A DNA stretch of 58,497 nucleotides from Candidatus Dojkabacteria bacterium (GCA_025061805.1 JANWZV010000001.1:1-58497), one strand, 5' to 3'; counted from the first letter of the stretch, positions 1-58,497 are shown. A program made the numbers and translations. Notes: generated by a model from the letters alone, not told the origin.

Positions 1-84
1 AAAAAAATATGTTAAATTAAATGAAAATAAATTAAAAAAAAAAATAAGTTAAATCAAAGTTGATTATTATATAGAATTAACATA

Positions 85-143
85 AATTAATTCAATCACT
101 AAAATTAATTCAAATAAAATAAGATATATAGCAATTAATTCAA
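85..143. repeat. Three exact copies of AATTAATTCAA (85-95, 103-113, 133-143) in non-coding DNA
   Basis: The exact 11-mer is read three times within 60 bp. No ORF covers the region. Confidence 0.8.
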
Positions 144-195
144 ATTTTACATAAAATGAAACTTCTAAAAAAAAAATAAAATTAGTAAAAAATCA

Positions 196-450
196 AAAAG
201 AAATAGAAAGAAGTAAAAAATAGAAAGAAGTAAAAAACAGAAAGAAATAGAAGAAATAGAAAGAAATAGAAAGAAGTAAAAAACAGAAGAAATAGAAAGA
301 AATAGAAGAAATAGAAAGAAATAGAAGAAATAGAAGAAATAGAAAGAAACAGAAGAAATAGAAAGAAATAGAAAGAAACATAAGAAATAGAAAGAAATAG
401 AAAGAAATAGAAAGAAATAGAAGAAATAGAAGAAATAGAAAGAAGTAAAT
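196..450. repeat. Degenerate tandem array of 9/10-bp units (AAAGAAATAG / AAGAAATAG, plus a 17-bp variant AAAGAAGTAAAAAAYAG), about 27 units
   Basis: Read directly, with units delimited by ATAG. The plus strand is almost free of C across the array. Track ORFs 165..458 and 193..381 are only F/L/S/Y translations of the repeat. Confidence 0.9.
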
Positions 451-999
451 AAAAACAAATAAATTTATATTCTTGTAGTTTGTTTCTTTCGTTTATTTTT
501 ATTAATACTGCATCAAGCCTTTATTATGTCCAAATTTTTCTATTTTTAATTGAAATTTTACACAAGACATTTTTATAAAAGTAACCAATTTTTAAAAAAA
601 CAAAAAAAAAATAACAAAAATAAAAAATCTTTTTGTAAAATATACTAAGAATTTTCATTTTATTTGGTTCTTGTCTCGTAAAATTTTTTTTTATGTTTTA
701 TTGGTTTATAATACATGAAATATTTTTTATATCTTTTCTCTTTATACTTATGAATTTATTTTTTATATTTTCATGCTTTATTATGTTATATAAGTTCAAA
801 TTTATTTTTTATTTCTGGATTACATTTTATAAACTTATATTCTATGTTTCTCTTGAATATCAATTTTCTAAAACATGAATTTTCGAAAATATTTGTTTCA
901 ATGTTCTAAAAAAGTATATTGTCTTAATTTTGCATTTTATGTTAATAAATAGATTTATCAAAATTGAATTTCAAACAATAATAATATAAAATCATAAGA

Positions 1000-1410
1000 A
1001 TGGAGAAAAAAATGAATACAAAATTCATTAAGATAAAAGATTTGAAAGAAGGAATGAAAATAAAAACTCTAAATGAAAGAGGTGAAATAGTTTTCAAGAA
1101 AGTAACAAAAATACGTAAGACCGAAGTAAGTAAAGAAGATAGATATGTTCTTTATTTTGATAATGGAACTATTTTGAGGTGTTCTGAGAATCATCCTATA
1201 ATGATTAACTATGAAGGAAATATAATAGAAAAATATCCTTTAATGATTTCCATAAATGATAAAATAGTTACAGATTCAAATGTATTTACAAGATTATTGA
1301 AAATAGAAAAAGATAATAACGATAAAGATTATTATGATATAGAGGTAGAGGAAACCAATACTTTTTTTTGTTCTTCGGAAGAAAGAGATGAGCAGATATT
1401 GACTCATAAC
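1000..1410 (+). other. Intein C-terminal fragment (blocks B, F, G; no block A) fused to the nrdA C-extein
   Basis: Block B is RCSENHPIM, block F is YYDIEVEETNTFF and block G is ILTHN, followed by +1 Ser at 1411. No Cys/Ser1 block A lies upstream. Confidence 0.75.
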
Positions 1411-3090
1411 TCTCAAGGCGGTGTAAGGGGTGGTGCTGGAACATTGTATTTTGTTATTTGGCATTATGAAATAGAAGATATGTTGGTTTTGAAAAACAAT
1501 AAAGGCACTGAAAACAATAGAATCCGTCATTTGGATTATGGTGTAATGATTTCCAGATTATTTTATGAGAGATTGATACAAAATAAAAACATAACTTTAT
1601 TTTCCCCTCATGAAAATAGTGAAATGTATGAGGCATTTTTTAATGACGAGAAAAAATTCAAGAAATTATATGAGCTTGCTGAAAAAAATCCAAACATAAG
1701 AAAAAAGACAATAAAAGCAAAGGATTTGTTTTCTCTACTTATGCAAGAAAGAAAAGATACGGGAAGAATATATATTTTGAATGTCGATCATGCAAATACA
1801 CATTCCTCTTTCATGGAAGACGTAGCTCCTATCAGAATGAGCAATTTATGTTTGGAAATAACCTTGCCGACTGTTCCTCTTAGGAATCCAGATTGCGGAT
1901 ATAAGAAGGTTTTCGTAAAAATTCACAAGGATAAGGTAAGTGATTATAAAAATTGGAGAAAGGAATTCAAGAATCTCATTCCGGAAGAAAAAGATATAAA
2001 AGAAAATTATATTACCATAGTCAATGATATAATAAACGAAAAAATAGATAAAGATAATTATGAATATTTTGAAGAAAAAATGATGGATCTGGAAAGCGGA
2101 TCCATAGCTTTATGTACTTTGTCTGCGATAAATTGGGGTAAAATAAACAAAAAAGAAGAGTTCGAAAAATATTGCAAACTTGCGGTAAGAGGATTGGATG
2201 CTTTGTTGTCTTATCAGGATTATCCATTATATGCGGCAGAAAACAATACGATGTGTTACAGGCCGCTAGGGATAGGTATTATAGGTTTTGCTCACTGGTT
2301 GGCAAAAAACGATATAAAATATACTGAACCGAATCTTGATCTTATAGATGAGTTTGCGGAAGCTTGGAGTTATTATCTCATAAAGGAAAGTGTCAATCTT
2401 GCAAAAGAGAAAGGACCTTGTTTGAAATATTACAACACGAAATACAGTAAGGGTATTTTGCCCATAGACACATATAAAAAAGAAGTCGATGAGTTGGTTC
2501 CTCATAAAGAAAGAATGAATTGGAAAGATCTTAGAGAAGAATTGAAGATATACGGAATAAGAAATGCAACTTTGATGGCTCTTATGCCATCCGAAAGCAG
2601 TAGTCAGTTGGCCAACGAAACAAACGGTATAGAACCGCCGAGGTCTTACGTTTCGGTTAAACAATCGAAGGAAGGTGTGTTAAAACAAGTTGTCCCTGAT
2701 TTCAAAAGATTGAAAAATAAATATGAATTACTCTGGGATCAAAAATCTCCTCAAGGTTACATAAAAATTTGCGCAGTACTGCAAAAATACATAGATCAAA
2801 CGATTTCAGCAAACACATCTTACAATCCCATGTTCTTCAAGGATGAAAAGATTCCCATGAGTGTGTTACTGAAAGATCTCATGATGTGTTACAGATATGG
2901 ATTGAAAACTTTGTATTATTTCAATACATATGACGGACAAGGCGAAATAGATGTAAATAAGCTATTGAAATCGAAAGAAAAAAAGAACTTGATCGTGAAT
3001 GAAATAGAAGAACAAATAAGAAATAATTATGAAGAAAATTCTAAAACTAATGCCGCTGAAGATGAGAAATGCGATTCTTGTGTTTTATAG
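1000..3090 (+). CDS. nrdA: Ribonucleoside-diphosphate reductase alpha subunit (class Ia NrdA), C-terminal ~560 aa only, preceded by a 137-aa intein C-fragment
   Basis: After ILTHN|S the sequence SQGGVRGGAGTLYFVIWHYEIEDMLVLKNNKG, SNLCLEI, IALCTLSAIN, LMPSESSSQ, NGIEPP and a C-terminal CDSC tail are colinear with E. coli/T4 NrdA from the active-site Cys loop onward. The N-terminal ~225 aa of NrdA are absent. Confidence 0.9.
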   Translation: MEKKMNTKFIKIKDLKEGMKIKTLNERGEIVFKKVTKIRKTEVSKEDRYVLYFDNGTILRCSENHPIMINYEGNIIEKYPLMISINDKIVTDSNVFTRLLKIEKDNNDKDYYDIEVEETNTFFCSSEERDEQILTHNSQGGVRGGAGTLYFVIWHYEIEDMLVLKNNKGTENNRIRHLDYGVMISRLFYERLIQNKNITLFSPHENSEMYEAFFNDEKKFKKLYELAEKNPNIRKKTIKAKDLFSLLMQERKDTGRIYILNVDHANTHSSFMEDVAPIRMSNLCLEITLPTVPLRNPDCGYKKVFVKIHKDKVSDYKNWRKEFKNLIPEEKDIKENYITIVNDIINEKIDKDNYEYFEEKMMDLESGSIALCTLSAINWGKINKKEEFEKYCKLAVRGLDALLSYQDYPLYAAENNTMCYRPLGIGIIGFAHWLAKNDIKYTEPNLDLIDEFAEAWSYYLIKESVNLAKEKGPCLKYYNTKYSKGILPIDTYKKEVDELVPHKERMNWKDLREELKIYGIRNATLMALMPSESSSQLANETNGIEPPRSYVSVKQSKEGVLKQVVPDFKRLKNKYELLWDQKSPQGYIKICAVLQKYIDQTISANTSYNPMFFKDEKIPMSVLLKDLMMCYRYGLKTLYYFNTYDGQGEIDVNKLLKSKEKKNLIVNEIEEQIRNNYEENSKTNAAEDEKCDSCVL

Positions 3091-5626: not shown

Positions 5627-5636
5627 ATAAATATTT
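5627..5636 (+). promoter_or_regulatory. ATAAATATTT box, 4 nt upstream of the portal ATG at 5641
   Basis: Exact 10-mer, back to back with the 5601-5610 box of the divergent gene. Confidence 0.35.
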
Positions 5637-5640
5637 GAAA

Positions 5641-8600
5641 ATGTCAAATTGGAAAAAGTATTTTCAAACTATAACTCTCGATAAGAAGATTTCAGCTTTA
5701 CAAAATCAACCAGATTCTCCTGCTTATGCAAATAAGTTTTCGTCTTATTTGCCGGAAATTTATTCTGGATCTTCCAACAGATTGGAAAGATATCAACAAT
5801 ATGATCAAATGGATCAAGATTCCGAGATAAACGCTAGTTTGGATACTATTGCAGATTTTGCTACGTCCGTGCCGGAAAACAGCAATCTTATATTTGAAAT
5901 AGTTTTCCTTGACAGTAGTTCTCCGACTCCGGTCGAAACGAACATAATAAAACAAGCATTGATAAAATGGTGCAAAATAAATAAATTTTCTTCAAGACTT
6001 TGGAGAATTTTCAGATCTACGATAAAATACGGAGATCAATTTTTCTTGAGAGATCCGGAAACTTTCGAGCTTCTTTGGATAGATCATTATAAGGTGCAAT
6101 CGGTAATAGTCAATCCGGCAAAAGGAAAGAAGCCGGAATATTATGTGATAAACGACTTAGATATAAATTTGCAAACCAAGGTCGCGACCTTGCCTAGGGA
6201 AAATGCAGTCAATATGATAAATTCCTTATATTATGTGAACAAACCACAAGGAGAACAGTTGCAACATACCTTGTATTATAATCAACCGAATGTCACTAGT
6301 TGGATCGGGAAATTCAGGGGTGTTTCCAATACTCCAAGATCTGAAATAGCAGTGAATGCCGATCATATAGTGCATTTTTCCTTAAGTGAAGGTTTGGATG
6401 CACTTTGGCCTTTCGGATCTTCTATTTTGGAAAGTGTTTTCAAGGTTTACAAACAAAAAGAGCTTTTGGAAGACGCGCTCATAATTTATAGAGTACAGAG
6501 AGCACCCGAACGAAGAGTTTTTTACATAGATGTAGGTAACATGCCTCCGCACAAAGCGATATCTTACGTAGAGAGGATAAAAAATGAAATACATCAAAGA
6601 AGAATACCTAACAAAACGGGAGGCGGTACATCGATATTGGACGCTTCTTATAATCCTCTTTGTCTTTCCTTGGATACTAAGATTCCTTTATTGAATAATA
6701 CAGAAAAAACAATTAGAGAGATAATCGACCATTATGAAAACAAAGGCGAAAATCTCTATACTTACTCAATCAATGAAAATACTTTGGAAGTTGAAGTCAG
6801 CAGGATAGTTTCGGCTAAAATCACTGGGAAAAACAAAAAACTCATGAGAATACATTTGGATAATTCGTGTTATGTTGATTGTACTCCGGATCATAGATTC
6901 ATAACCAGAGACGGCAAAGAAGTGAAAGCAGAAGAATTGACGATTGGCACCAGTCTTATGCCTTTTTATTTAAGAAAAAAAGAATTATCAAAAAATTGCA
7001 AAACGACTTATCTTCAGATTTATAATCCTTCGACAAATGAATGGAAATTTGTGCATCGATTGGTCAAGGACAATTATCCCATTAAAGATCATGTGTATAA
7101 TGAAAAATATAAGAATAAACCAAAAGAAGTCATTCATCATTTAGATTTCAATAGGTTTAATAATACCCCGGAAAATTTGGTTCTTATGAATTCTATAGAT
7201 CATTGGTTGCTCCATAGTGAAGCGGCAAAAAGTAAAGTTAATAGAGAAAAAATATCTTTGTTGAATAAAAGAAGATGGAAAGACGATAATTTCAGAAATT
7301 CTGTCATAGAAAAACAGAAAATAAGGTATTCTGAAAAAATGTTTTGTATTTTACAGAATGTTTTTTCGCAGAATTCGCAAAATCAAGAAAAGATTCTTTC
7401 TATACTGAACAAGAATAAAGAATTTATCGAGGAATTCAAGAAAATAAACAACAAGACAAAATGTGCCAACAAAGATTTTTCTGTTTTTACAAGAAGAAAT
7501 CTTATATGTTTGATAAATTGTTTCGGCTATGATAGTTGGAAAAAATTCAGAATCGAGCAAATCAAGGCAAAAAAAATAAGAAATTCGGTATTTTATCAAA
7601 ATTGTAATTTTGATGAACATACTAAAGATTTCATAAAGAATATAGTTTCTTCTTTTGATGAAGATTTTAGAATAAGGGATTTATTGGAGAAAATAAACCA
7701 AAATAAATCGTTTTTAGATTCTTGGAAAAATTCCAATAAGAAATTACATAAAAAATGTTTAGTCAAAAAAAGTTTCGATAAGTTTAATTATAAGCATCTT
7801 AGAACATTTGTCATTTCGAATGGTTATGCTAATTTTGACGAATTTAAGAAAAACGTTCTTCAGGATAGTCAATTGAACCATAAAATAACGAAAATAGAAT
7901 ATTTGGAAGGAGTGCATGATGTGGGAGATATACAGATAGATTCTCCTTCTGGTTCTCATTGGTTCGCCGTTTCTGCCGGAATATTTGTTCATAATTCTAT
8001 TTTGGAAGATTATTTCTTTCCTATAACGGCGGAAGGAAGAGGAAGCAAAGTTGAAACTTTGCCAGCCGGTGAAAATTTAGGTCAGATTGACGATTTGAGA
8101 TATTTTGATAACAAACTGAAAAGAGGTTTGAGAGTTCCTTCTTCATATCTTCCATCAGGTCCAGAAGATGGCCAGACTTCTTTCAACGATGGTAAGATAG
8201 GCAATGCTTATATTCAAGAATATAGATTTTCGAAATATGTGCAGAGGTTACAGAATTTGTTGCAACCTACCATAGATAAAGAATTTAAGTATTTTTTGAA
8301 AGTAAATGGAATAAATGTAGATACTTCTTCTTTCTATATTTGTTTCTGGCAACCGCAGAATTTCGGTAAATATAGACAACTTGAGACAGATGCGGCACAG
8401 ATACAGATATTTTCTTCACTTTCAGATGTACCTTGGTTGAGCAAAAGGTTTATAGCAAAAAGATATCTTGGATTAACTGATGACGAAATCATAGAAAATG
8501 AAAAACTCTGGTTAGAAGAGAATTCTGACACCCAGCAAGAAACTAAAAATCAAGACGAAAAAACCGACATGTTTGATAACGGCATGATGAATATGAACAC

Positions 8601-8760
8601 GAGGGACGAGGATATAATCAATAGGTTTGGAGAAGAAGATAATTTCGATGAAGAAAATGAAGAGGAAAATATCGTTGATAATACGGATAAAAATTTAGAA
8701 GATGATGAAATGAATGTTCCTGATACTCAAGAAAAGGAAAAACCTGGAGAAGACCAGTAA
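5641..8760 (+). CDS. Portal vertex protein (gp20-like) interrupted by an intein; acidic C-terminal tail
   Basis: RLERYQQYDQMDQDSEINASLDTIADFAT and, after the intein, SILEDYFFPITAEGRGSKVETLP resemble T4-type portal motifs. The track start at 5635 is TTG; the ATG at 5641 is preferred. Confidence 0.7.
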   Translation: MSNWKKYFQTITLDKKISALQNQPDSPAYANKFSSYLPEIYSGSSNRLERYQQYDQMDQDSEINASLDTIADFATSVPENSNLIFEIVFLDSSSPTPVETNIIKQALIKWCKINKFSSRLWRIFRSTIKYGDQFFLRDPETFELLWIDHYKVQSVIVNPAKGKKPEYYVINDLDINLQTKVATLPRENAVNMINSLYYVNKPQGEQLQHTLYYNQPNVTSWIGKFRGVSNTPRSEIAVNADHIVHFSLSEGLDALWPFGSSILESVFKVYKQKELLEDALIIYRVQRAPERRVFYIDVGNMPPHKAISYVERIKNEIHQRRIPNKTGGGTSILDASYNPLCLSLDTKIPLLNNTEKTIREIIDHYENKGENLYTYSINENTLEVEVSRIVSAKITGKNKKLMRIHLDNSCYVDCTPDHRFITRDGKEVKAEELTIGTSLMPFYLRKKELSKNCKTTYLQIYNPSTNEWKFVHRLVKDNYPIKDHVYNEKYKNKPKEVIHHLDFNRFNNTPENLVLMNSIDHWLLHSEAAKSKVNREKISLLNKRRWKDDNFRNSVIEKQKIRYSEKMFCILQNVFSQNSQNQEKILSILNKNKEFIEEFKKINNKTKCANKDFSVFTRRNLICLINCFGYDSWKKFRIEQIKAKKIRNSVFYQNCNFDEHTKDFIKNIVSSFDEDFRIRDLLEKINQNKSFLDSWKNSNKKLHKKCLVKKSFDKFNYKHLRTFVISNGYANFDEFKKNVLQDSQLNHKITKIEYLEGVHDVGDIQIDSPSGSHWFAVSAGIFVHNSILEDYFFPITAEGRGSKVETLPAGENLGQIDDLRYFDNKLKRGLRVPSSYLPSGPEDGQTSFNDGKIGNAYIQEYRFSKYVQRLQNLLQPTIDKEFKYFLKVNGINVDTSSFYICFWQPQNFGKYRQLETDAAQIQIFSSLSDVPWLSKRFIAKRYLGLTDDEIIENEKLWLEENSDTQQETKNQDEKTDMFDNGMMNMNTRDEDIINRFGEEDNFDEENEEENIVDNTDKNLEDDEMNVPDTQEKEKPGEDQ
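6661..7995 (+). mobile_element. Complete 445-aa intein with an HNH-type endonuclease domain, inserted in the portal gene
   Basis: It starts CLSLDTKIPLL (block A). Block B is DCTPDHRFIT. The HNH motif is VIHHLDFNRFNNTPENLVLMNSIDHWLLH. Block F is HDVGDIQIDSPSGSHWFAV and block G is IFVHN, followed by +1 Ser at 7996. It is in frame (1335 nt). Confidence 0.85.
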
Positions 8761-34081: not shown

Positions 34082-34168
34082 GCGGGAATGGCGGAACTGG
34101 CAGACGCGACAGACTCAAAATCTGTTGATCGAAAGATCGTGGGGGTTCAAGTCCCCCTTCCCGCACCA
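34082..34168 (+). tRNA. tRNA-Leu (anticodon CAA), type II with a long variable arm and an encoded CCA
   Basis: Hand-folded. Acceptor gcgggaa/ttcccgc. D stem gcg/cgc. Anticodon stem acaga/tctgt with loop ctCAAaa. Variable arm gatc-gaaa-gatc. T stem ggggg/ccccc with loop ttcaagt. The 3' end is ACCA. Confidence 0.9.
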
Positions 34169-36699: not shown

Positions 36700-39600
36700 A
36701 TGTCAGAAGAAAACAAAAAAGTAATAAATCTCTTACCATCTACTTATAAAACGAGATTTTTGGAAAATTTATTTACGAATTCTTTTGATAATCTTTTTGA
36801 TAAAGGAAATAGCGAGTTTTTGGATGGTTTTATTGGTAAGATAACAAGTTATTACGAAAAAAATTCACAAAATTATATAAAAGAAAAAGATATCAATAGG
36901 ACAATATATCAATTTGAACCGATTGTAATTAGTAAAAACGGAAATAATGAGAATTTTAGTTTGTTTTATGAATGTTTCTTGAATTCAATAAAATTGAATG
37001 GTGGCTTCATAGAAAATCAAAACAGGTTATTTGAAAATTATTATTATTCTTGGTGTCCACCTATAGATATTGATAAATTTATGAATTTCAAAGAATACTT
37101 TTGGTTAAAAGATGGCCCGACATTCAGGTATGCTGGATATAAAATACATGAATATGTATCTAATGGAACAGATACCATATATAATTTTGATTTACCTTAT
37201 ATTAATCAGAATGAAATAATTGTTACTGTCGATGATGTGTTACAAAACCTAGGAGTGGATTACGTTATTCAGAATAGATCCGTAGTTTTTAATACTTCCC
37301 CTCCCGTAGACAGTAAAATAAAAATAATATCTTACAAGATCATAGGATATGAAATTTATGTTTCTGATGGTGTCAATAAAAAATATAAAGTTCCTCTGAT
37401 ATGTAAGAAAAAAGAGGATATTATAGTTTTCATAAACAATATATTGACTACTTCTGGTTTTTCCATAGTTGAAGAAAATGGAGAATTTTATGTTATTTTC
37501 GATAATCCTGTGATAGTTGGTTCAAATATAGAAATAATAGTATATAAAATATTGAATGTATTAGAAGATATTTTGGGTAGAAAGCACATAAAGGATATAA
37601 ATGGTTATTATTATTCTTCCAATATGAAAATAGTTTTTTCTTATAATGTTTTTCCTTCCGTATATAACTCTGGAGAATGGATAATAGAAGGAGTAGGCAG
37701 AGAAATAAGGCTTGCTTTTGATGGTACTGGATCAAGCTTGACTTCTGGATGGGATTTGTTTTTATGGGATAGTATAGCGTGGGATAATGATTTGTTCGTA
37801 AATTTTTATCCTCTTTCGGCGCTTATAAAAAGCGATATACCTGAATATGAAACAATAGAAAGAACATCCTTAAATAATAATCCATGGAGTAGAACCAATA
37901 GATGGTTCCATTATGATGTTCTGACTCCAGAAGATAGAAAGAAAGCTATACAAGCTAAAAGACCTATAATTGAATTTGAAAGAGATTTGGAACTTTATAA
38001 TTATGGGAGATATTTTAGGGGATTTGTTGATTTAGTGATTAACGATATGAAGGATCCCATAAATAGTTTTCTTAATGCTTTAAATGTAAATAAAATAAAT
38101 CCATATTGCATATCCGCGATTTCAATAAATTCTCCTGGTTCAGGATATACCAATTTAGGCGGAAATGGTGAAGTTGTGTGCAATGTTGTTGGCGGTACCG
38201 GAACTGCTGCTCAAGTAAAAGTAACTTTGACATCTGGGCAAGTTACAGCCGTACAATTAGTAACAAAAGGAGAATATACGACTATACCGGTCGGTCCTGT
38301 TACTGTGGACACTCTAGTGGGTGGCTCGGGCGCTAGTTTCAATGTTGAATACAATGAAATAAATACTTCTTTTTTCATAAAATCTTTGGTTTGGCCAAAT
38401 TCTTATCTAGGAGAATCCGAAATATTTTATGGAAACATCAAAATAAAAGATGGGATGAGAATTCTCGTTTTGAATAGTAATACATCGGATAAAAATAAAG
38501 TTTTCAAGGTAAGTGGAATAGCTGGCTTGGGTTCTCCTAATTTGCTTTTGGAAACCGATGGAATATTGACCAATGGTGATCCGTTCGAGGGAGAAATTCT
38601 TTATGTAAAGGATGGAATATTCAAAGAAAATGAATTTTATTTCGATGGAATATCTTGGAATATATCTCAAATTAAAAATTTTGGTAACCCTCCTTTGTTT
38701 CAATTATATGATGCGGATCCGATCAATAACTATGGTGTGAAATTGAATGATTCCGTAAGATATCCAAATAGTGATTTCAATGGAAATAAGATATTTTCTT
38801 ATGCTGAGGGAGAAGGAAAAAAAGATAAAGTATTAAATAAGAAACTTAAATATGACAAAAATGGTGAAATTGTTTTCGTTTTTAATTTAGTGACTGATAG
38901 ATATCAATATTCAGACGGAGAGATAAAAGGGTTTTATTTTTATAATAAATTAGGAAAGACAAAAGAAAAAGACGAGTTTTACAATTCTTGGCATAGAAAA
39001 AACAAGAAAAGTAAACAAAATTATTATAATAGATTGATTTCGGATGTCGATGGAATAAAAATATTTGAAGTAAATTGGAAAATAAACAAAATAGAAGAAA
39101 TTTACATAAACGGCAAGAAAGTAAATTATACTTATTTGATTGATACAAACAAAACAATAATAAATCTACAAAATTTGTTGGAAAAAAATGATATTATAGA
39201 AATTATATCCGTGTATGATGAAGATTCAAGAAATGGAAATTTTGAAATACCGCAGAATTTATCAAAAAATCCTAACTTTGAAGAAGTTACTTTTCTTTCC
39301 AAGACTAATTATGGTATTCATTTCAATGAAAATATTCAAGAAAACTTATCGACTGTAAAATTTGTAAATCCTGGACAATATTATAGTAAAAACAAATATC
39401 GAGATAGCGAAAAAAATTGGTCTTTTGGTGAACAAATAATACAAAACGAAGAGTCTATTTTGAAAGCTTCGTTGATTTTTTCAAAAAGTGAATTGAATAT
39501 TTTTGATTCTATAGATTATTTGTCTAGAGAATATAATAGATTTTTCAATAAATTTATTCAAAAATTAAATTATTTTTATACCGAAAATATATTGAATCAA

Positions 39601-42600
39601 TTGGATCCTCCGGGAAAATGGGTAGAAGAAATACTGAAAGAACTTAATAAAAATAAAACCAACGATTTTCCTTTTTATAGATCTCTTTTTGGAGATATTA
39701 ATAATTTTATTCCTCCGTCGTTGAGTTATTTGGGAATTTTACAAACTTATTATCCTATAAAATTTATAGATACTTCCTTACAAGAACCTCTGGAATTTAT
39801 ATTATGCCACGATGGAAGTTTAATAAAATCTTTTGGAGATTTTAGGGATGATGTAATTTTGGAATTGGAGATATTTCTATACAATTCTATAGAAAGTAAA
39901 TTCAAGAACGAAAATCTTTTTGAGTTTTCTATTTTTGATGTCTTGCCGGGAAAATGGAGAAAAACAGATTATAATATGAATGAAATAAATTCTATATTAT
40001 CGAGATATTTTGAGATATGGTGTTTGCAAAATAATATTTCTTATAGAAACAATGTTACTTATTCGGCTGATAATTATTGGTCGTTCAATTTTAGAAACGC
40101 AAAATCTACTCTAGGTGATGTTTTGAATGGTTCTTGGAGAGCAATATATCATTATTATTATGATACCGATAGACCACATCTATTTCCTTGGGAAATGTTA
40201 GGTTTTTCGGAAAAACCAGGATGGTGGGATTCCGAATATGGTCCTCCTCCTTATACTTCATTGAACTTGAAACTGTGGGAGGATTTAAGAGATGGCAGAA
40301 TAAGAAATGGGCCAAGAAAAGGCATAGATAAACGATTTGCTAGACCAGAATTATTGAAGATTCTACCGGTTGATGAACTGGGGAATCTATTGAATCCATT
40401 TGAAGCAAAAATTTTCGATAATTCTGTTTTATCCAATGATTTCAGTGAAGATTGGAAATTCGGAGATTATGGTCCGGTAGAAAATGCATGGAGAAGAACA
40501 AAATTTTATAGATTTGATTTGCTGAAACTTCTTCTTCTAACTAAACCCTTAAAATCAGTAGAGTTATTTTGGGACACCAAAAACATAAAAAGAATTTACA
40601 ACGATAAAGAAAAAACGAATCAATTGGTCAATATTCTTTATAAATCTAGGCCTAAACATGAATTGTATCAAGTCTTTGGGGAAAGAAATGATGTTCTTGG
40701 CTTGCAGAATATCATAACACATTATCTTGAAAAAGATTCGAAAGATATAAAAACTTTTTATGGGGATTTTATAAGAAACTTGAATGTAAAGTTGGGTTAT
40801 AGATTTGGTAGTTTCATAAATTCCGAATTTTTATCTGTTTTTTCAGAAACATACGGATTTTTACCAAAAGAAGATATAAATGTATTTTTATACGAAAGCA
40901 TACCTTTTAAAGAAACATTTTATTCCGGAATATTAGTAAGGAACTTAGGAAACAATATTTTTCAGGTTTTTGGATATGATGTTCTTGATCCGAATTTCAA
41001 GATCATTAAAGGATCTTCTTCCGGAAGAAAAAAAGATATTTCGATATTTTTAAATAATAATATTTTACCCAAAAAATGGAATCCTAATACTGAATATAAC
41101 GTCGGCGATTACGTTTATTACGAAAATGATGCTTATAAGGCAATAAAAGCACATAAATCTTCAAAAAATTTCGAAGATGATTTGAATAAATGGAAATTGC
41201 ATTCTGATACGGTAGAAAATATATTTTTCGTTGTTAATAAAAAATTAGATGTAGAAAAAGAACAAATAACGAAATTTGGTTATGGTAGTATTATTTTTGG
41301 TATTCAAGATTTGGTTGATTTCATTTTTGATTATGAAAGATACCTTCTACGCGAAGGTTGGATTTTCGATGAATATGTATTCAACGAAGAAACCGGCGAA
41401 GGAGTTATTTTTGATTTTGAATATTCGGTTAAAGAATTGTTGAAATGGATCATTTCAGAACCCCCGGTTAATTCTATATTTGCTATTTCTCCTTTTTCTA
41501 AAAAAGCAAGATTCAAAACAGATTTCGGATATATAAAATCAATAAATGATTATCTGAAAAGTAGGTATAGCATACTCAATAGAGATGGGTCGATAGTTAA
41601 TACGGAAAATTTCATAATTTTTAGATTGAATGATTTCTTTGAAATAGAAGCAAAAGAATTAAGCGAAGTTAATAATATTTATGGGTTAAGATTATTATTA
41701 AATTCTTTTGAGCATGCTTTTTATGTAAATAACAAAACAATATTTGGTGATATAATTTTTGATCCTTTATATAATCAAAGACAAAATAGATTGAAAATTT
41801 CTACTTTCAGAACAAAGAACTGGAATGGTAGAGTTACTTCTCCTGGATTCATAATAACCGAAAATACAATAAAGCCGAATTTCGATAAATCTGCGGATAA
41901 CTTCAGAAGGTTTTTTGACTTGAATAATCAAGTCGAAGATAAGAAATTAAGAGATTATGCAAACCATAATATAGCATATCAGTCTAGATCTTATCTTAGA
42001 AATTTAATTTTAAGTGATACCAGTCAGATAGATTTTTATAGGGGTTTGATAAGACAAAAAGGTTCTAGCAATTCTATCACTAAAATATTGAGGTCTAATT
42101 ACATTTCTAATTTTGCCAATTTTAAATTCTATGAAAATTGGGCTTTCAGAATAGGAGAATTTGGAAATTATGATGAAAAAAATAAGATAGAAATAAGCTA
42201 TCCTGTAAGTTTGAAAAAGAGTGATGTTCAATATTTCAAGTTTGATATAATAAACAAGGATACGTGGAAAACTCTCATTGATATATCTACCGGAGATTAT
42301 GATATAGAAATTTATGGGGAAAAATTAAAGAAATTGGATTTGGATTCAAAAAATGATGACATAATTTACGTTTATGATTTTAAATCTAAAAAATACAAAG
42401 TACAAAATGATTCTTTGATACAACCCATAATAATAAATGGTGGTTCCAATTTCGAACCAAATAAAAATTTCTTGGTCATTTATGATACCAAATATGCAGA
42501 TAAGACTGCAAAGTTTTTACTGTCTTCTAATTCATCTGGTCAAATTTCTTCCGTTGTTCTATATGAAGAAGGAGAATATAAAAGCGTAGATACGATAGGA

Positions 42601-45600
42601 TTTTTCGATATAACAGAAAATGAATTGAAAGGAGAAAATTGGCCAAATCAAGGAAGAGATTTTGTTCTAAGAATAAAATTCATAGAAACCAATGATGAGT
42701 TTATTTCGGTAAAGAATAAGTTATGGAAAATAAGACAAGAAGAAGATTATCCATTTTATGAAGATTATGAGTCTTCTTATAAATCCGTGGACAATGTTGA
42801 TTTCAGATTCATCCCGAATGCCGGATTTGTTCTAGAAAATGAAACAAATTATTCAGATTTTTACATCAATGATATCTTAAAGCCTATTGATTTTGAAAAT
42901 TTAGAAACTTTTACGCCTGATCTTTTGAATAATGTTCCTGTTTTTAGACCCGACGAGACTTTATGGATTTATTCTTCTCCTGGCAGCAATTCTTATTTCA
43001 ATGAAAATTATTTGGGAGATTGGACTGTTGCAAGAGTAGTCGATCAAAATTTCAAAATACATGCATACTTGGAAAGCGACCCTTCATTCAATTGTCCTTT
43101 GGTTGTCAATTCCATACCAAATGATTATGTCCAATATATCGGAAACGGTTCAAATACGACATTTTTGATACCTTTTATTTTCTATAAAAACTCAGATTTG
43201 GTTGTTTTGATAAACGGAAAAATATTAGATAATACCAATTATAATATAGTAGGAAACAATATAATATTCAATACTGCTCCTACAAACAATGCCAGAATAG
43301 AAATATCTAGAAAAGGACTTTGGATATATCAAACAGATGGAAGATTTAAAGGCTGGACTCAAGTTTTTTATTCAGGAAAATTCAATTTCAACCGTTTTGT
43401 TTCTATAGGGGAAGAACTTAAAAAAGATGTCAATATTGCCGATTATGTCATAGTTGCTTCGGGAATAGAATGTTTTAGATTTGGTTCTTTGGGTCAAAAT
43501 TATGTTCCAGGTGATATTCTTACGCTTTCAGGTGGTACTCTTGCTCCTGGAGGTAATCCGGCTACATTTAGAGTTAATAACGTATATACTACTTATGTTT
43601 CCTCTGTTTCTGTATTGTCCGGCGGTTCTGGATATCCACCTAACCAAACCTTCAATAACGTCAGATTAATAGGAGGACAGGGGGCCGAGGCACTTGTAAA
43701 TGTCACTACTGATGCCTTTGGATCTGTCTCTACTGTCTCGATATCAGGCAACAATTACGGTTCATATCAAGTCAATCCTCTTGGAAATATATGTACTTTG
43801 GATTTAACTCCTGGATCCGGCGCACAGATATTGGTGACAATGCAAGCATATACTTATGCAAACACGATAACGTTAGTTAACGGTGGAACCGGTTATTCGA
43901 TAGACGATGTTCTCGAAATAGTCGAGTCTTCTTCTTATTCCCTTGAACAAATAAGAATTGCTGTAACGGAAGTAGATCAATTCGGGTCGATAACAAAATT
44001 CCAGATAGTTTCTAGGGGTCAATTTATACCTTCTACTTTTCTTCCACAACCACTGTCTACGAATGTTGTGGCTCCTCCTTTCTCTAATGGATCCGGAGCT
44101 ACTTTCAATGTCACTTATGGAAATAATCCTCACGTTTTAAGAGATATAGATATTATTTTCCCGGGAAATTATATATCTGTTTCTACTTCGGTACCATATG
44201 CTCTTACGGGCGGTTCTGGCACAGGCGCTTCTGTTTTCGTGGAAATAAAGGAAGAAGGGTTTTTGATAGGATATGAAGAAAAGGTAAAACCAGGAGATTG
44301 GTTGGTATTTATTTCCAGAAAATGGCAGAGAACAGTTCCCAATCTCACGGATTATATAGTTATCAAGGCATCTAATTTGGAATTGGAATTCTTTGATCCG
44401 AATATTTTATCCAATTTGGTTCCAATAGATTTTTATACCTTAAGAGAAATAAAATTTGATACATACAACGATGTTTTGACAAATTATGTTTTGCCCAATA
44501 ATAATTCTAAAGCGTTTGTTTTGAATCTTAATTCGTTTTTGAACAATAATCTCAATTTATGGGGAGTTTTGAGATATAATGGAACGAATTGGTTGTTAGA
44601 TAGGGCACAGAATAAAAGAGTAAGGCATGATAGATATATATCTGGATTCATTTATGATAAAAATCAAAATATTGTAATTTCGGATGTTGAATATTATGAT
44701 CCTTATAATGGAAGATTATTAAGCGACATAAGAGAAAATGTAGATATATTTTCTGATGAAGATCCTGCTATTTATGGACAAGAAAGAAATTCTTGGCTTT
44801 ATGACAAAGTTGGTACTATTTGGTGGAATCTAAAAGAATATAGAATATTGGATTATGAACAATCCGATTCTTCGTATAGAAGAAAAAATTGGGGAAAACC
44901 AGTAAAAAACAGCAAAATAGAAGTATATGAATGGATAAGAAGTGACTTAAAACCGACAGAATTCAAAAATAGGCTAGAATCTTTCACAGAAAGAGATTTG
45001 TTTCCAGGAGAACCAGTATTCGAAGACAAATTCAACGAATCTTTTGAATTTGATCCCATTTTCAATAGGAGTATCAAGTATTACTATTTCTGGGTAAGAA
45101 AAAGACAAATAGTGAACGATAAGAAAAAATTAAGTATTAAACAAATTTCAGACTTGATAAACAACCCGAATATTTCTTTAAAGCCCTGGTTTGCAGGTAT
45201 ATCCAAAGATGGAATGATAATTTATGAACCAGGAAATGTATTAAGTGATGATACGATATTTCAGATAATATATACCAAAAACGAAAAAACAAAAGATTAT
45301 AATAATCATACACAATGGGTTTTGGTTCCTGAAAAAAGCGATACTTTCGATATTCCAAAAAGGCTTCTCAACAAATTGAGAGATTCTTTATGTGGTTTTG
45401 ACGATTATGGCGAAAAGAAAGAATTGTTCGAAACAAAAAGAAAAATATTGGATAATGTGACTATTTTGAATTCTGGTTCTGGTTATAACAACGGAAATTT
45501 CATTGCTACGGTTTCAGGTGGAACATTTATTGTTCCTGCAACGCTTAGTGTAACAGTAAGTGGCGGTCAAGTTGTTTCTTGTTCCATACTTAATCCAGGA

Positions 45601-48600
45601 TTATATTTGGTTCCTCCTCCTTCTCCTGTTTCCGTGACTGGTATACCAGGGGGTTCTGGAGCTTTATTTAATGTTTTGTTTTTAGAATTAAACAATCAAT
45701 ATGACATATGGATACCAAAATTAGTTCCTGATGAAAATTTAAGCGATGTGGAAAAATATGGAAATTTAATAAGACCAAGGCAGACATGGTTCAAAAACGT
45801 TTGTAAGGCCAGAAAAGAATATGTAGAAGTCATAAATTATATTTTGGGAAAATTGAATCTTTATAAAGATAGGCCTAATTGGGATTTAGGTATCAATCAA
45901 TCCGAGCCATATCCATTTGATATAAACAATCCTTTACCGAATCAAAAAGTAGTATCAGATTCCTTCGATTTATATAATAAAATCATAACAAATCAAATAG
46001 TATTAAATGATATCATTTTGATGCTTGGTAATCAGAATACAAAAGGTTTTTGGACACTTTGGAAATATGAGCAGAGTGGTTTAAAATTATTGGATTACCA
46101 AAAATATAATACTGTTGATTTTTATGAAATCATAGATTGGTATTCGCCTGAAGTGGATAAAAACAATGTTCCGATTATAATTTATCAAGATAATTTAGAA
46201 AGAGATTCTAAAACTGATACTTCTTTGCTCAATAAAATTGTAAAAGTAGAAAATGACGGATCAAATAAATGGGCATGGTATAAATTAAAAATCAACGAAT
46301 TAAATAATTTTTATTGGGAATTGGTTGCAAGAGAAAAATCGACAATTAAATTATCATCTAAATTCTACGAAAATTGCGGAAATATATTCGGTTTGTTTTT
46401 CAACAAAAATTACAATTCTTTTATTTATGGATTAAATTGGGATGAATTCGATTGGGACACATTTGAGTGGGATCCAATAAAGATAAATGTTCAGAATTCT
46501 ATGATTGGATTCGGCAAAGAGGTAGATAAAAGGAGTGGGATTTTAGAATTAAGAATTCTATTTGAATATTTAAACAACAATGTTTTGGATTTATCAGAAA
46601 TAAATTTGATGTTTTTCACGATGGTCAGGTTTGCTCATACTGAGCATAGTTATATTGATTGGGCATTCAAGACTAGTTTAGTAGATGTAGTTGGGTTCAA
46701 TCAAGAATTAAAACAAGATGCGATTATATATTTTGATATCAGCAAGAGCTTTTTGGATTTCTTCGATGAAGCAAAACCATATCATGTTAAGATAAAGGAT
46801 TTTATAAAATCTTTTTCTTTTGTGGATATTGCTAATTTTTATGTTACTGATTTCGATAAACCCGTATTTTTCGATATCGAAACAAAGGAATATAGAGTTT
46901 TGTCTGTTTTTGACCCCAATGATATTAAAATATTCGAAAGTCCTAAAAATCCAGGATTATTTTTCAATTTCTTGTTTTTGAATTTGTTCCTTAACAATCC
47001 AAGACAATCGCAGAGTTTTATTGTTTCTAACGTAAATCAGATTGTTTTTACTCTTCCTTTGGATATAATTGATGCTTCTTTGGTGGAAGTAAAAGTCAAT
47101 AATATATTGAAAACAATAAATGTGGATTTTTATGTCTCTCAAAACAATATAATATTCTTATATCCATTGAGCATAGGAGATGTCGTGGATGTAATAGAAA
47201 GACAGATACCTAAAGGATTACAAGGATTGGTTACTTCCAAAAATATATGGAATGACTGGTATTCTAATTACCTCGATAATCCAGAGTTAATAAGAACCTT
47301 AAAAATAAAAATTCTTTTTGATAGATTGTCTTGTATAGATTCCAATACACAATTCTTCTGGGATGAATTTGATTGGGATACAATAGTTTGGGATAATGCT
47401 CAAACATTGGTAAATCCTAATATAACAGATACTGTTTTCATCAATCTAAGCAATGGTGTTCAGATTTATGATTTGTCTTCGATTGTTCAAATAGATCAAA
47501 TATTGTGGCATCCTTATAATTTTTCTGAAATATATTACATTCATAACAATAATGAATCATTACTTCAAGATGATGATTATCAATTGTTTTATTTAGATTT
47601 GTATAATTTTACTGGAAATGGAACAAATACAACTTTTTCGGTCAATACGAAACAAAATATAACACCGCCTGTAATACAGGTTTTCGTTAATGGCGTGTTG
47701 CAAAATTACGTCACTGATTATGTTTTGGTTGGCAAAAATGTTGTTTTCAATGTTCCTCCACCAAATAATTCGATTATTTTAGTAAAAATATTGCCTAGAA
47801 TTATTCTAAACTTCTCTCCTTCCACTGGATCTTCTCTAAAGATAAAAAGAACTCTTGAATCTATGGAAAGAATATTGAAATATTATATTAATAAGGAAGG
47901 AAAGAAGTCAAAAATAGAAAAAAGATTGATACCGAGATGTGATTTTTACGGAACTGTAATAGAAGGCGAAGGTTTTGTAAAAAGTTTTGATTGGGATATG
48001 TTTGATTGGGATATTCCAGGATCTTGGGATGTTTCAACTATTTCTACTCTTTATTTTAATGATTTGATTTTGAGTGGTGGACAATTTTATGATAGTTATG
48101 ATTTCACTGGTGATGGTTCTACTTTATTGTTTTCTTTGAATCCGCCTCCTTCTGTTTTACCAAATACGAATACAAATAGTATAGTTTTTATAAATGGTGT
48201 CCTACAACAACCAAACATAGATTATTCTTTCTTTGGTAATAGCATAGTTTTCACGTTGCCTCCTCCCAATAATTCCGAAATAAAAGTTATAATAGCTCCG
48301 TTCTTACCGGCAAATACCAATATTTGGGATATAGTTGTAGATGGATACGAATTTGTCTCTCCATTATACGGACCCAATCAACCGGAGGAAAGAGTGAAAA
48401 TAAAGCCAAGATCGCCTGTAATAATGAAAACATTTACCGAATATTCTTTTGGTGATTTTCCGATTGAAATAATAAGACTGGAAGGTAATGCATCATCCAA
48501 TTTCGTGGAATTCAAGACATATCCTCAATCTATTGAAAGTATAATGGTATTTTATAATGAAAATCTCATTTTACCGCCTTTGTGGAATTTAGATTATTTG

Positions 48601-57298: not shown

Positions 57299-58303
57299 TT
57301 AAAAATCGTAATTGTATTTCAGTGTTTCTCTGAATTCAGAAATTTTTTGACATTTTTTATCGTTTGTCATATCTAAAAAAGCCTGTTTTAGTGTTTCTAT
57401 GTTTATATTTGTGCATTCGTAATTCAAATTTTTCAAACAATCGTTATAATCATAACCATAAACCAAAAGATCATTGACACAAGATTTACAACCTTCGGGC
57501 AAAACAACCCATACATCGTCCCCAAAAATACCGTTTCTCCAAAATAGAGAATGAAAAATATTAGTATAAGTACAAATGCATAATATTTTTTTATCAGTAA
57601 GACCAGACAACTGTATTAATCCTCCTGTTACTCCGACGATATATTTACATTTTTGCATTATTGATAATGTTTCTTCGATTGTTATTTCTCCTACAAAACT
57701 TATTAAATTTTCATTTTTTATTTCCGGAATAACCTTTTTTGAAGAAAATTTTTCATTGATGTTTTTATGATCTTGGCTTTTTTCTCCTCCTACGAGAATT
57801 ACCGAATGTCCTAATTCGAAAAGAAAATTGATAAATTTTTTTAGTACGTCGCTGTTCCATTTTTTTGAATGAGAACGATAAGATACCGGAATTACAACAG
57901 AATTTTCCAAATTTATGTTTAAAGTTTTTTGTTTTATTTTATCCGATAAAACCTTGTTTTTCCATTTCCACAAACTTAAATACTTTTCTTCTATTATTTT
58001 TCCGAAAAAACTTAATGAACTGAAAATACTAAGATTTGTTCTAGGAACAAAATACTCATTTGGAAATATTTTTTTTATGGAAACCCATGGTGCCCAAGAA
58101 ACGAGTTCTTCGAATGGATGAATATACTTTTCGCTTATCCAATCCCTTATCAAAAAATCATATTGTGGAGGACAAGATACCCTGAAATTTTCTTCAAATA
58201 TATTTTCTATACCCCATTTTAAAACAGGCAAACTCATGATAGAATCACCTAATCCACCGTTTATCACGATATGAAAAAAATTTTTATATCCTAATAAATT
58301 CAT
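57299..58303 (-). CDS. Glycosyltransferase family 9 (heptosyltransferase-like)
   Basis: HIVINGGLGDSIMSLPVLK (GT9 N-terminal GLGD motif), VILVGGEKSQD and VGVTGGLIQLSGL. Confidence 0.6.
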   Translation of the reverse strand: MNLLGYKNFFHIVINGGLGDSIMSLPVLKWGIENIFEENFRVSCPPQYDFLIRDWISEKYIHPFEELVSWAPWVSIKKIFPNEYFVPRTNLSIFSSLSFFGKIIEEKYLSLWKWKNKVLSDKIKQKTLNINLENSVVIPVSYRSHSKKWNSDVLKKFINFLFELGHSVILVGGEKSQDHKNINEKFSSKKVIPEIKNENLISFVGEITIEETLSIMQKCKYIVGVTGGLIQLSGLTDKKILCICTYTNIFHSLFWRNGIFGDDVWVVLPEGCKSCVNDLLVYGYDYNDCLKNLNYECTNINIETLKQAFLDMTNDKKCQKISEFRETLKYNYDF

Positions 58304-58304
58304 T

Positions 58305-58497
58305 TTACTTTTCCGTTATTTTAAATTTTTCGAAATTTTCTATTAATTTTTTATGAAAAATTTCAGTACAAGTGAATCCTTCTCTTTCATCTATGAATTT
58401 TTTCCTATAACATTGATCGAACTCCCAGTTGTCGATATAAAAATCAGTTAAACAAAATCTGCAACCCGAATTTAAGAAATTTCCTCTATATAACGGA
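58305..58497 (-). CDS. 3' end of a CDS that runs off the window edge
   Basis: Hand translation on the minus strand is open from 58496 to the TAA at 58305-58307: ..NSGCRFCLTDFYIDNWEFDQCYRKKFIDEREGFTCTEIFHKKLIENFEKFKITEK*. It ends 1 nt before the next start. Confidence 0.45.
   Translation of the reverse strand, partial: PLYRGNFLNSGCRFCLTDFYIDNWEFDQCYRKKFIDEREGFTCTEIFHKKLIENFEKFKITEK

Follow-up and report, generated by a model that had tools for sequence, protein, structure and literature searches.

The 58,497-nt stretch JANWZV010000001.1:1-58497 (GCA_025061805.1, Candidatus Dojkabacteria bacterium), analysed at its full length and referred to here as the window, carries near its 5′ end an incomplete gene for ribonucleotide reductase (RNR), nrdA, that opens with intein sequence. 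Our analysis suggests, with a probability of roughly 0.8, that positions 1012..3090 are the C-half of an atypically split, intein-fractured class Ia nrdA, whose product would be trans-spliced to a separately encoded N-half. The split would leave nearly all of the intein on the C-half as a large C-fragment (IntC), and a very short N-fragment (IntN) on the missing partner. The observations behind this reading are the identity, boundaries and catalytic motifs of the C-half, the occurrence and anatomy of relatives in both split and contiguous form, and the lack of an N-half in the window. A preliminary description of the window, made from the sequence, had proposed this type of split; several of its details are revised below.

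Intein C-fragment and start of the reading frame

The nrdA open reading frame (ORF) occupies 1000..3090 on the + strand, with 696 aa from the first ATG at 1000, and an in-frame TAA at 982-984 closes the frame just 5′ of it. There are two possible ATGs, at 1000 and 1012, and from the second the frame is open and intact for 692 aa. The true start is probably ATG 1012, because it is preceded by a GGAG at 1002-1005 and aligns residue by residue with Met1 of homologous C-half ORFs in other phages. The IntC heads compared were MNTKFIKIKDLKEGMKIK in the window, MKTKLIKIKDLKPGMKIK in the related locus L004 and MQTKVIEIKDIKVGDMIK in gp060 of Acinetobacter phage KARL-1. The preliminary description had counted 137 leading residues as intein rather than RNR; the assignment stands, with the length corrected to 133 aa from the likely start. 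A contiguous nrdA running into position 1000 was ruled out by the in-frame stops upstream. The features of this segment are:

1002..1005, + strand: Shine-Dalgarno-like GGAG, 6 nt 5′ of ATG 1012, read from the sequence.
1012..1410, + strand: predicted IntC of 133 aa, all of the intein except its first β-strand (block A), with a Lys-rich head, MNTKFIKIKDLKEGMKIK; alignment to 44 unique family members, Pfam, PDB profile and Foldseek.
1180..1203, + strand: intein block B, CSENHPIM (Ser58-x-x-His61); CSxNHPIM is invariant in the 44 unique relatives.
1330..1368, + strand: intein block F, YYDIEVEETNTFF, beginning YYDIEV, with Asp109 kept; family alignment.
1396..1410, + strand: intein block G, ILTHN, with penultimate His132 and terminal Asn133; LTHN is invariant in the family.
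1411..1413, + strand: +1 Ser, the first C-extein residue, equivalent to Ser293 of E. coli NrdA; PDB alignment.

Alignment of the 1000..1410 segment to Hint and intein profiles, as had been proposed beforehand, gave intein matches both in Pfam and with a family profile against the PDB. The translation of 1012-1410 matched Pfam Intein_splicing (E 2e-7, 31.4 bits) as well as Vint and Hint, and a profile built from five family sequences matched the solved inteins Mja KlbA (1.6e-5), PI-PfuI and gp41-1. An AlphaFold model of IntC was of moderate confidence (predicted local distance difference test 67; core 70-82). Inteins or HINT domains made up essentially all of its top ~25 Foldseek matches in the PDB, with template modelling scores of 0.44-0.59.

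Every motif residue conserved in at least 95% of the 44 unique members is present in the window IntC. The segment has the features of a class 1 intein, namely Ser-x-x-His in block B, Asp in block F, His-Asn followed by a Ser nucleophile, and a HINT fold. Blocks B, F and G were located where they had first been placed. Block A was confirmed as missing, being found neither in the nrdA ORF nor in any frame of the window. Together, the profile matches and the model indicate that 1012-1410 is most of an intein, with block A lacking. The first 22 residues of the window IntC carry a net charge of +3, compared with family means of +4.8 for this IntC head and −5.6 for IntN.

NrdA C-extein and insertion site

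The rest of the ORF encodes NrdA from the equivalent of E. coli residue 293 onwards:

1411..3090, + strand: NrdA C-extein, equivalent to E. coli residues 293-761, with stop codon; 543 bits to E. coli NrdA 293-740, Pfam Ribonuc_red_lgC E 3.5e-110.
1840-1860, + strand: SNLCLEI, NrdA motif kept in the C-extein.
2107-2127, + strand: ALCTLSA, NrdA motif kept in the C-extein.
2908-2928, + strand: LYY, NrdA motif kept in the C-extein.
3070-3087, + strand: C-terminal CDSC (CxxC), NrdA motif kept in the C-extein.
1888..2091, + strand: insertion of ~68 aa, without counterpart in E. coli NrdA and outside the intein; gap between aligned stretches (query 160-227).

All of the class Ia RNR alpha residues expected in this part of the protein are kept: Asn437/Cys439/Glu441, Cys462, Tyr730/Tyr731 and the C-terminal Cys pair. 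The N-terminal ATP cone, the all-alpha domain and Cys225 are encoded neither in the ORF nor elsewhere in the window, as determined by tblastn. Lacking Cys225 and the N-terminal domains, the C-extein cannot act alone. Its conservation, with intact catalytic residues, thus indicates selection on a functional enzyme, for which a Cys225-bearing N-half is required.

Alignment to the PDB sequence showed that SQGGVRGG follows Cys292 of E. coli NrdA, so that the intein junction is Cys292/Ser293 (a slash marks junctions throughout). Contiguous relatives read ...KSC/intein/SQGG..., an in-frame insertion at a conserved host site. In E. coli NrdA, residues 292-301 form the flexible loop 2, through whose Gln294 and Arg298 the effector site conveys specificity to the active site (PMC4728125). 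By alignment, the intein sits at the first residue boundary of this specificity loop, and because of this position the enzyme would be non-functional before splicing. The junction had previously been placed at the redox-active Cys loop, with ~225 aa of NrdA missing. Both points were in error: the site is at loop 2, not at Cys225, and ~292 aa of N-extein are absent.

The ~68-aa insertion sits in the NrdA barrel just past the Cys439 strand and is not intein-like. KARL-1 gp060 and locus L130 carry insertions at the same NrdA position.

Split and contiguous relatives

Two GenBank phage records, identified by tblastn of the ORF and with matches reaching into its intein part, and 55 IMG/VR and JGI metagenome loci gave 57 related loci, which were classified by script. 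The intein was shared at 41-55% identity by the 55 metagenome loci, the identity of the window IntC to its relatives was also given as 44-55%, and tblastn to related loci reached E 1e-72. Thirteen loci carry contiguous mini-inteins, 36 are split with both halves visible, and the remaining eight have too little sequence upstream (≤1,147 nt). The proposed architecture, a large C-fragment with block B and a tiny N-fragment, is thus borne out by 36 split and 13 contiguous homologues; the window gene's own partner was not found.

The split loci resemble one another closely. All 36 C-half ORFs begin at the same residue as the window ORF (M/V-K-T-K-K-I-Q-I-K-D-L). The N-extein is followed by an IntN tail of 12-25 aa (median 19) that begins with Cys, with the consensus CVTPDTWVEVLDE, or C[VL]xP[DE]T[WY]VE[VI][LI][DE]E with an acidic tail behind it. 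The position of the split is taken up in contiguous members by a variable acidic loop, as in ...VEVIDEGDSDEME/KTKKIQIKDL.... The two halves lie on the same strand with a gap of 35-1,595 nt (median 1,127), which exceeds 1,011 nt in 27 of the 36. The gap is usually filled by a gene classed as DUF7487 in Pfam and as the PHROG 3339 homing endonuclease in PHROGs. This endonuclease gene is absent or reduced in loci L137, L138 and L108, whose gaps are 35, 159 and 665 nt.

Both states are represented by named phages, the contiguous one by Shewanella phage Thanatos-2 besides 12 metagenomic loci and the split one by KARL-1 besides 35 other loci. In Thanatos-2, nrdA is uninterrupted by a split and reads ...AVKS/CLTPNTLV...VLTHN/CSQGG.... 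In KARL-1 (L001), gp058 encodes NrdA 1-291 ending ...HS/CLTPDTKVEILV and a stop, and is followed in the gene row by gp059 (299 aa) and by gp060, which starts like the window ORF. The public records of both phages annotate plain RNR fragments and a hypothetical protein.

Most family members have the register ...KSC/C...THN/S, with +1 Ser, as the window gene must have. A register shifted by one residue, ..KS/C...THN/C (+1 Cys), was seen in KARL-1, Thanatos-2 and L130; the shifted set was also given as L001, L002 and L130. Loci L133 and L134 read ..LRCA/CLTPDM. Natural IntN of 12-13 aa (CLTPDTKVEILV, CLTPETWVEVIEE, CVTPDSWVEVLDE, CVHPESIVEIIRE) occur in KARL-1 (L001, 2225-3121), L088, L117, L137, P0007 and P0009.

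Other breaks in nrdA were noted among the relatives. In L004 (8208-13120) and similar loci the gene is broken repeatedly, with a second split intein and an HNH gene at the thiyl-Cys site (SNLC/LTGDTKIEV...) and a third intein after MPSE/C. P0001 holds another intein that starts 8 residues past the Cys292/Ser293-site intein (SQGGVRGG/CVGADSLV).

A second half-gene in the window

The terminase gene terL had been remarked upon as sharing the split architecture, and this was supported by Pfam, by PDB matches and by relatives in Agrobacterium phage Atu_ph07 and the IMG/VR locus L141. The terL ORF occupies 32327..34024, and Thr-Thr follows its VLHHN:

32327..32677, + strand: terL intein C-fragment of 117 aa, ending VLHHN before a +1 Thr in the Walker-A loop; Pfam, PDB matches and alignment to Atu_ph07 gp109.
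32678..34024, + strand: TerL C-extein, from just past the Walker-A Lys to the stop; Terminase_6N from profile position 11, 49-53% identity to jumbo-phage TerL.

PDB matches of the terL IntC were gp41-1 (6.6e-9), VidaL (2e-4) and the AceL/GOS-TerL consensus CatC (1.9e-3). In Atu_ph07 the halves are adjacent and 11 nt apart; gp110 ends ...CGRQLGK/SVHKSTDITYNDKQ... and a stop, and gp109 ends ...ILSHN/TTVAAAY. In L141 the TerL halves are 1.2 kb apart, around a free-standing 412-aa ORF.

TerL N-extein queries matched N-parts in every relative (E 1e-13 to 1e-55). In the window, which covers 32 kb upstream and 24 kb downstream of the C-half, the same queries for a TerL N-half, expected to comprise ~80 aa up to RQxGK and a short IntN, reached no better than E 0.26. 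The Walker-A-bearing half of TerL is therefore at least 24 kb away from the terL C-half. This makes a dispersed arrangement plausible for nrdA as well, without proving it.

Directly 5′ of the terL C-half, in the place occupied by the TerL N-half in Atu_ph07, lies an ORF of 166 aa (31796-32296) that matches phrog_11279 (E 1.6e-40). It was considered as a divergent TerL N-half and rejected, the match to this unrelated family being full-length.

Upstream region and search for the N-half

The sequence 5′ of the nrdA ORF has the following features:

1..999, no strand: AT-rich non-coding leader, 16.6% guanine plus cytosine (GC), with stops in all frames; composition and frame scan.
197..444, + strand: tandem array in which a purine-rich unit of 9-10 nt, GAAATAGAAA, is repeated ~26 times; Tandem Repeats Finder and repeat-family search (family D1).

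Positions 1-999 were correctly described as having no coding capacity. This does not warrant the conclusion drawn from it, that the N-extein is not to be sought directly upstream. Just 1,011 nt precede the start in the window and the gap is larger in 27 of the 36 split relatives, so that the N-half may adjoin beyond the window edge. The repeat array gave no match in Rfam. Lying at the contig end, it could plausibly have broken the assembly; an origin- or iteron-like region and a genome terminus are other possibilities.

The N-half was also sought outside the window. A junction-profile search of 5.8 billion proteins gave 338 matches, of which the best 120 were listed and 14, whose coverage suggested an IntN tail, were inspected. 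Among the matches listed, further split N-halves were found (P0003-P0010, with tails of 13-24 aa). The search for a partner, proposed at the outset, found none in the window, among the listed protein matches or in a genome-contig collection. The window sequence itself was also not present among GenBank phages or GTDB genome contigs. Exact-protein look-ups of its NrdA, taken from either possible start, and of its ThyX returned no record.

Proposed mechanism

If the favoured reading is correct, the N-half would be encoded outside the 58.5-kb fragment and would comprise NrdA 1-292, ending ...KSC, followed by a Cys-initiated IntN of ~12-25 aa, often with an acidic tail. Such an acidic IntN would be drawn to the Lys-rich head of IntC, where its β-strand would insert and complete the HINT fold. 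Class 1 splicing would then proceed by an N-S acyl shift at Cys1, transesterification to Ser+1, cyclisation of Asn133 and an O-N shift. Splicing should yield NrdA at full length, its loop 2 restored as ...KSC-SQGGVRGG.... These post-translational steps are drawn from the conserved motifs and from the established behaviour of other split inteins. By analogy with the relatives, from which alone this length is known, the IntN of the window gene should be 12-25 aa, facing a 133-aa IntC that includes block B. We infer the existence, sequence and location of the genome's own N-half, and likewise splicing activity.

Evidence against the proposal and alternative explanations

A number of results weigh against a functional, trans-spliced gene. 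Some of these concern the intein itself. The block-F His is replaced by Asn in the window IntC, a change also present in six relatives, contiguous ones among them. The few deviations of this kind would seem tolerable, since they are shared with contiguous members that must splice to give a working NrdA. The Pfam intein score of 31.4 bits is below the curated cut-off of 35.8, as expected of a domain without block A. For the whole NrdA Cys292/Ser293 intein family, splicing activity is a prediction.

Other adverse results concern the missing partner. When three NrdA N-exteins were compared with the window by tblastn, the best E was 0.066, which is noise, and a six-frame pattern search of the window gave no credible ORF with a block-A-like motif in the last 45 aa before its stop. 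The endonuclease gene that lies directly upstream in most split relatives (the gap is too short for it in 3 of 36) is lacking in the window. No remnant was detected when the relatives' endonucleases were compared with 1-999 by tblastn. A 1-kb non-coding leader in its stead is unusual for the family. In a genome of 28% GC the partner should be rich in Lys, Asn and Ile, which none of the 14 inspected proteins was. The genome-contig collection yielded no match to a degenerate DNA pattern for the ...SC/C-x-x-P-[DE]-T... junction. In the scans of IMG/VR and JGI metagenomes, for which the C-fragment served as query, the only finding on this point was that the window's own sequence is absent there.

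The most serious alternative concerns where the N-half lies. It could be linked, within a few kb beyond the 5′ end of the window and on the same strand, the endonuclease having been lost and an AT-rich spacer left in its place. This is a sub-case of the favoured reading, with trans-splicing kept. Provided that the split gene is functional, we estimate linked halves at slightly under an even chance, and separated halves at slightly over. Linkage is the rule in the family: in all 36 relatives with both halves visible, 35-1,595 nt separate the two on one strand (>1,011 nt in 27), and the eight relatives without a visible N-half all have ≤1,147 nt upstream. The endonuclease can be lacking or cut down, as it is in loci L137, L138 and L108, and short-read assemblies break at sequences of the kind seen in the array at 197-444. 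However, a 1-kb non-coding spacer occurs in no relative, as large gaps hold the endonuclease ORF. In addition, this genome separates the halves of a split gene at least once, since no terL N-half lies within the 32 kb upstream or the 24 kb downstream of the terL C-half.

A more far-reaching picture follows from the separated arrangement. In it, a jumbo-phage-like, low-GC genome would keep both terL and nrdA as unlinked halves tens of kb apart, each rejoined by an atypically split intein with an N-piece of about a dozen to a few dozen residues. The family of the nrdA intein would be one not yet described, with natural N-fragments that, at 12-13 aa, fall below all those characterised. Taken as a whole, this picture is tentative and rather doubtful.

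It is improbable that 1012..3090 is instead a dead remnant, that is, a 5′-truncated pseudogene or the result of an assembly or recombination break, with no partner and with the phage relying on the host RNR. In favour of this are the absence of both an N-half and nrdB from the 58.5 kb, the failure to recover the partner from any collection searched, and the non-coding, repetitive nature of the upstream kilobase. However, the ORF start, with its own GGAG, matches the 36 homologous C-half starts to the residue, which a random truncation would not produce. The 692-aa frame is intact, with all intein and RNR catalytic residues kept, and the window is incomplete. The essential terL is in the same half-gene state and cannot be a pseudogene in a viable phage. 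The kept motifs, the complementary charges and the constrained C-extein therefore argue for a working half-gene with a partner.

About as improbable is non-covalent association without splicing, in which the intein pieces would serve as interaction tags: the mobE-split NrdA-a/NrdA-b of Aeromonas phage Aeh1 is fully active unspliced, with charged tails that are essential (PMC3045599), and the pieces of the NrdA Cys292/Ser293 family are likewise charge-complementary, but the residues needed only for splicing are invariant and kept (block B His, terminal His-Asn, +1 Ser/Cys and the partners' Cys1), contiguous members must splice to give functional NrdA, loop 2, whose Gln294 and Arg298 relay specificity (PMC4728125), would have a 133-aa domain left on its first residue, and Aeh1 is split elsewhere, between Cys439 and Cys462.

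Comparison with known systems

The design is of a known kind, at a site not described in the searchable literature. Among atypically split natural inteins, AceL-TerL has an IntN of 25 aa, GOS-TerL of 37 aa, VidaL of ~16 aa and PolB16 OarG of 15 aa (PMC11766414, PMC10189870, PMC13014065). The last is called the shortest characterised natural IntN in papers of 2023-2026 (PMC11766414, PMC10189870, PMC13014065). The window gene shares with the AceL-TerL/VidaL/PolB16 type a large IntC with block B, a phage or metagenomic source and class 1 motifs, and its IntN, judged by the relatives, should likewise be very short. Its 133-aa IntC lies in the range of that type (over ~100 aa), and the 12-25 aa of the relatives' IntN lie under the ~40 aa that bound it; the window gene differs in host protein and site, here NrdA Cys292/Ser293. 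The likeness to AceL-TerL suggested in the preliminary description thus holds for architecture. It does not extend to specific sequence similarity beyond the general HINT fold, as PDB searches with the NrdA IntC did not retrieve 6dsl (CatC), 6vgv (VidaL) or 8cpn (PolB16). The IntN of NrdA relatives, known from sequence alone, go down to 12-13 aa, compared with 15 aa for the shortest characterised.

The fractured genes of Dassa et al. 2009, which include NrdA-1 to NrdA-7, consist of an N-half, a free-standing homing endonuclease and a C-half (PMC2677866). KARL-1, L004 and ~30 other relatives share this three-gene, one-strand layout in a phage nrdA. The window does not show it, having neither endonuclease nor N-half in the 1,011 nt upstream. 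The Dassa NrdA inteins lie directly N-terminal to the thiyl-radical Cys439, whereas the Cys292/Ser293 family is split after the first β-strand, and the intervening gene is DUF7487/PHROG 3339 in the relatives rather than Vsr-like.

The inteins of KARL-1 and Thanatos-2 belong to the same family as that of the window, with 44-47% identity to the window IntC. KARL-1 is split at the same point and Thanatos-2 is contiguous; both have the +1 Cys register, in contrast to +1 Ser in the window. Both phages are T4-like Straboviridae of ~160 kb with nrdB next door. No description was found of an atypically split intein at NrdA Cys292/Ser293, or of inteins in KARL-1 or Thanatos nrdA, in the searchable literature, a scope outside which most subscription journals and the intein databases fall.

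Aeromonas phage Aeh1 is similar in that a phage nrdA is broken by a mobile endonuclease and function is restored at the protein level (PMC3045599). It differs in having no intein and no splicing, tails without detectable homologues, and a split between Cys439 and Cys462.

The DnaE split intein of cyanobacteria has the canonical split site and an IntN of ~100-120 aa. It resembles the present case only if the N-half is distant, as that of terL must be, with unlinked halves and trans-splicing. DnaE is cellular whereas the system here is viral; for nrdA, a distant N-half would be a possibility. Should the dispersed reading be true, a DnaE-like dispersed trans-splicing arrangement would be found in a virus. 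Two genes in one genome fragment, nrdA and the Walker-A-encoding part of the terminase gene, would depend on rejoined halves that are possibly dispersed, which is unusual.

Split inteins with a short IntN are sought for protein engineering, because the short piece is accessible by peptide synthesis. The papers searched cite four natural examples (15-37 aa), none of them in RNR. The present phage family of 57 loci, with natural IntN of 12-25 aa, split and contiguous members and a Cys1/Ser+1 pair, would offer a comparative set for asking why so short a fragment suffices. The value of the window's own gene is limited in this respect, as its N-fragment was not recovered.

The window as a genome fragment

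The closest relatives of the window's NrdA and TerL are from jumbo phages of 290-490 kb. A minus-strand gene runs open off the 3′ end (58310-58497). Together with the contig and the missing nrdB described below, these findings mark the window as a fragment of a jumbo-phage-like genome. A closed circular genome was ruled out, since an end-to-end join gives no start codon for the 3′-cut gene. Logan contig SRR15826902_75707 (2.8 kb) contains a glycosyltransferase identical to that of 57299-58303 and extends ~1.4 kb further, into another GT9-family gene. At least part of the same phage is therefore present in sequencing run SRR15826902.

No nrdB was found in the 58.5-kb window, and Rfam and tRNA scans of it identified only a tRNA-Leu at 34082. 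One ORF of 4,664 aa (36700-50694) accounts for roughly a quarter of the window's length. A jumbo-phage origin agrees with this ORF and with several glycosyltransferase-like genes located at 55-58 kb. The T4-like portal gene (5635-8760) holds a contiguous 445-aa intein at 6661-7995, CLSLDTKI...GIFVHN/S, with an HNH endonuclease domain. The window thus has three inteins, one complete (portal) and two as C-halves only (nrdA and terL). The intein segments are AT-richer than their host genes, with GC contents of 25.1 vs 32.7% for nrdA, 24.8 vs 33.7% for terL and 28.8 vs 35.5% for the portal gene.

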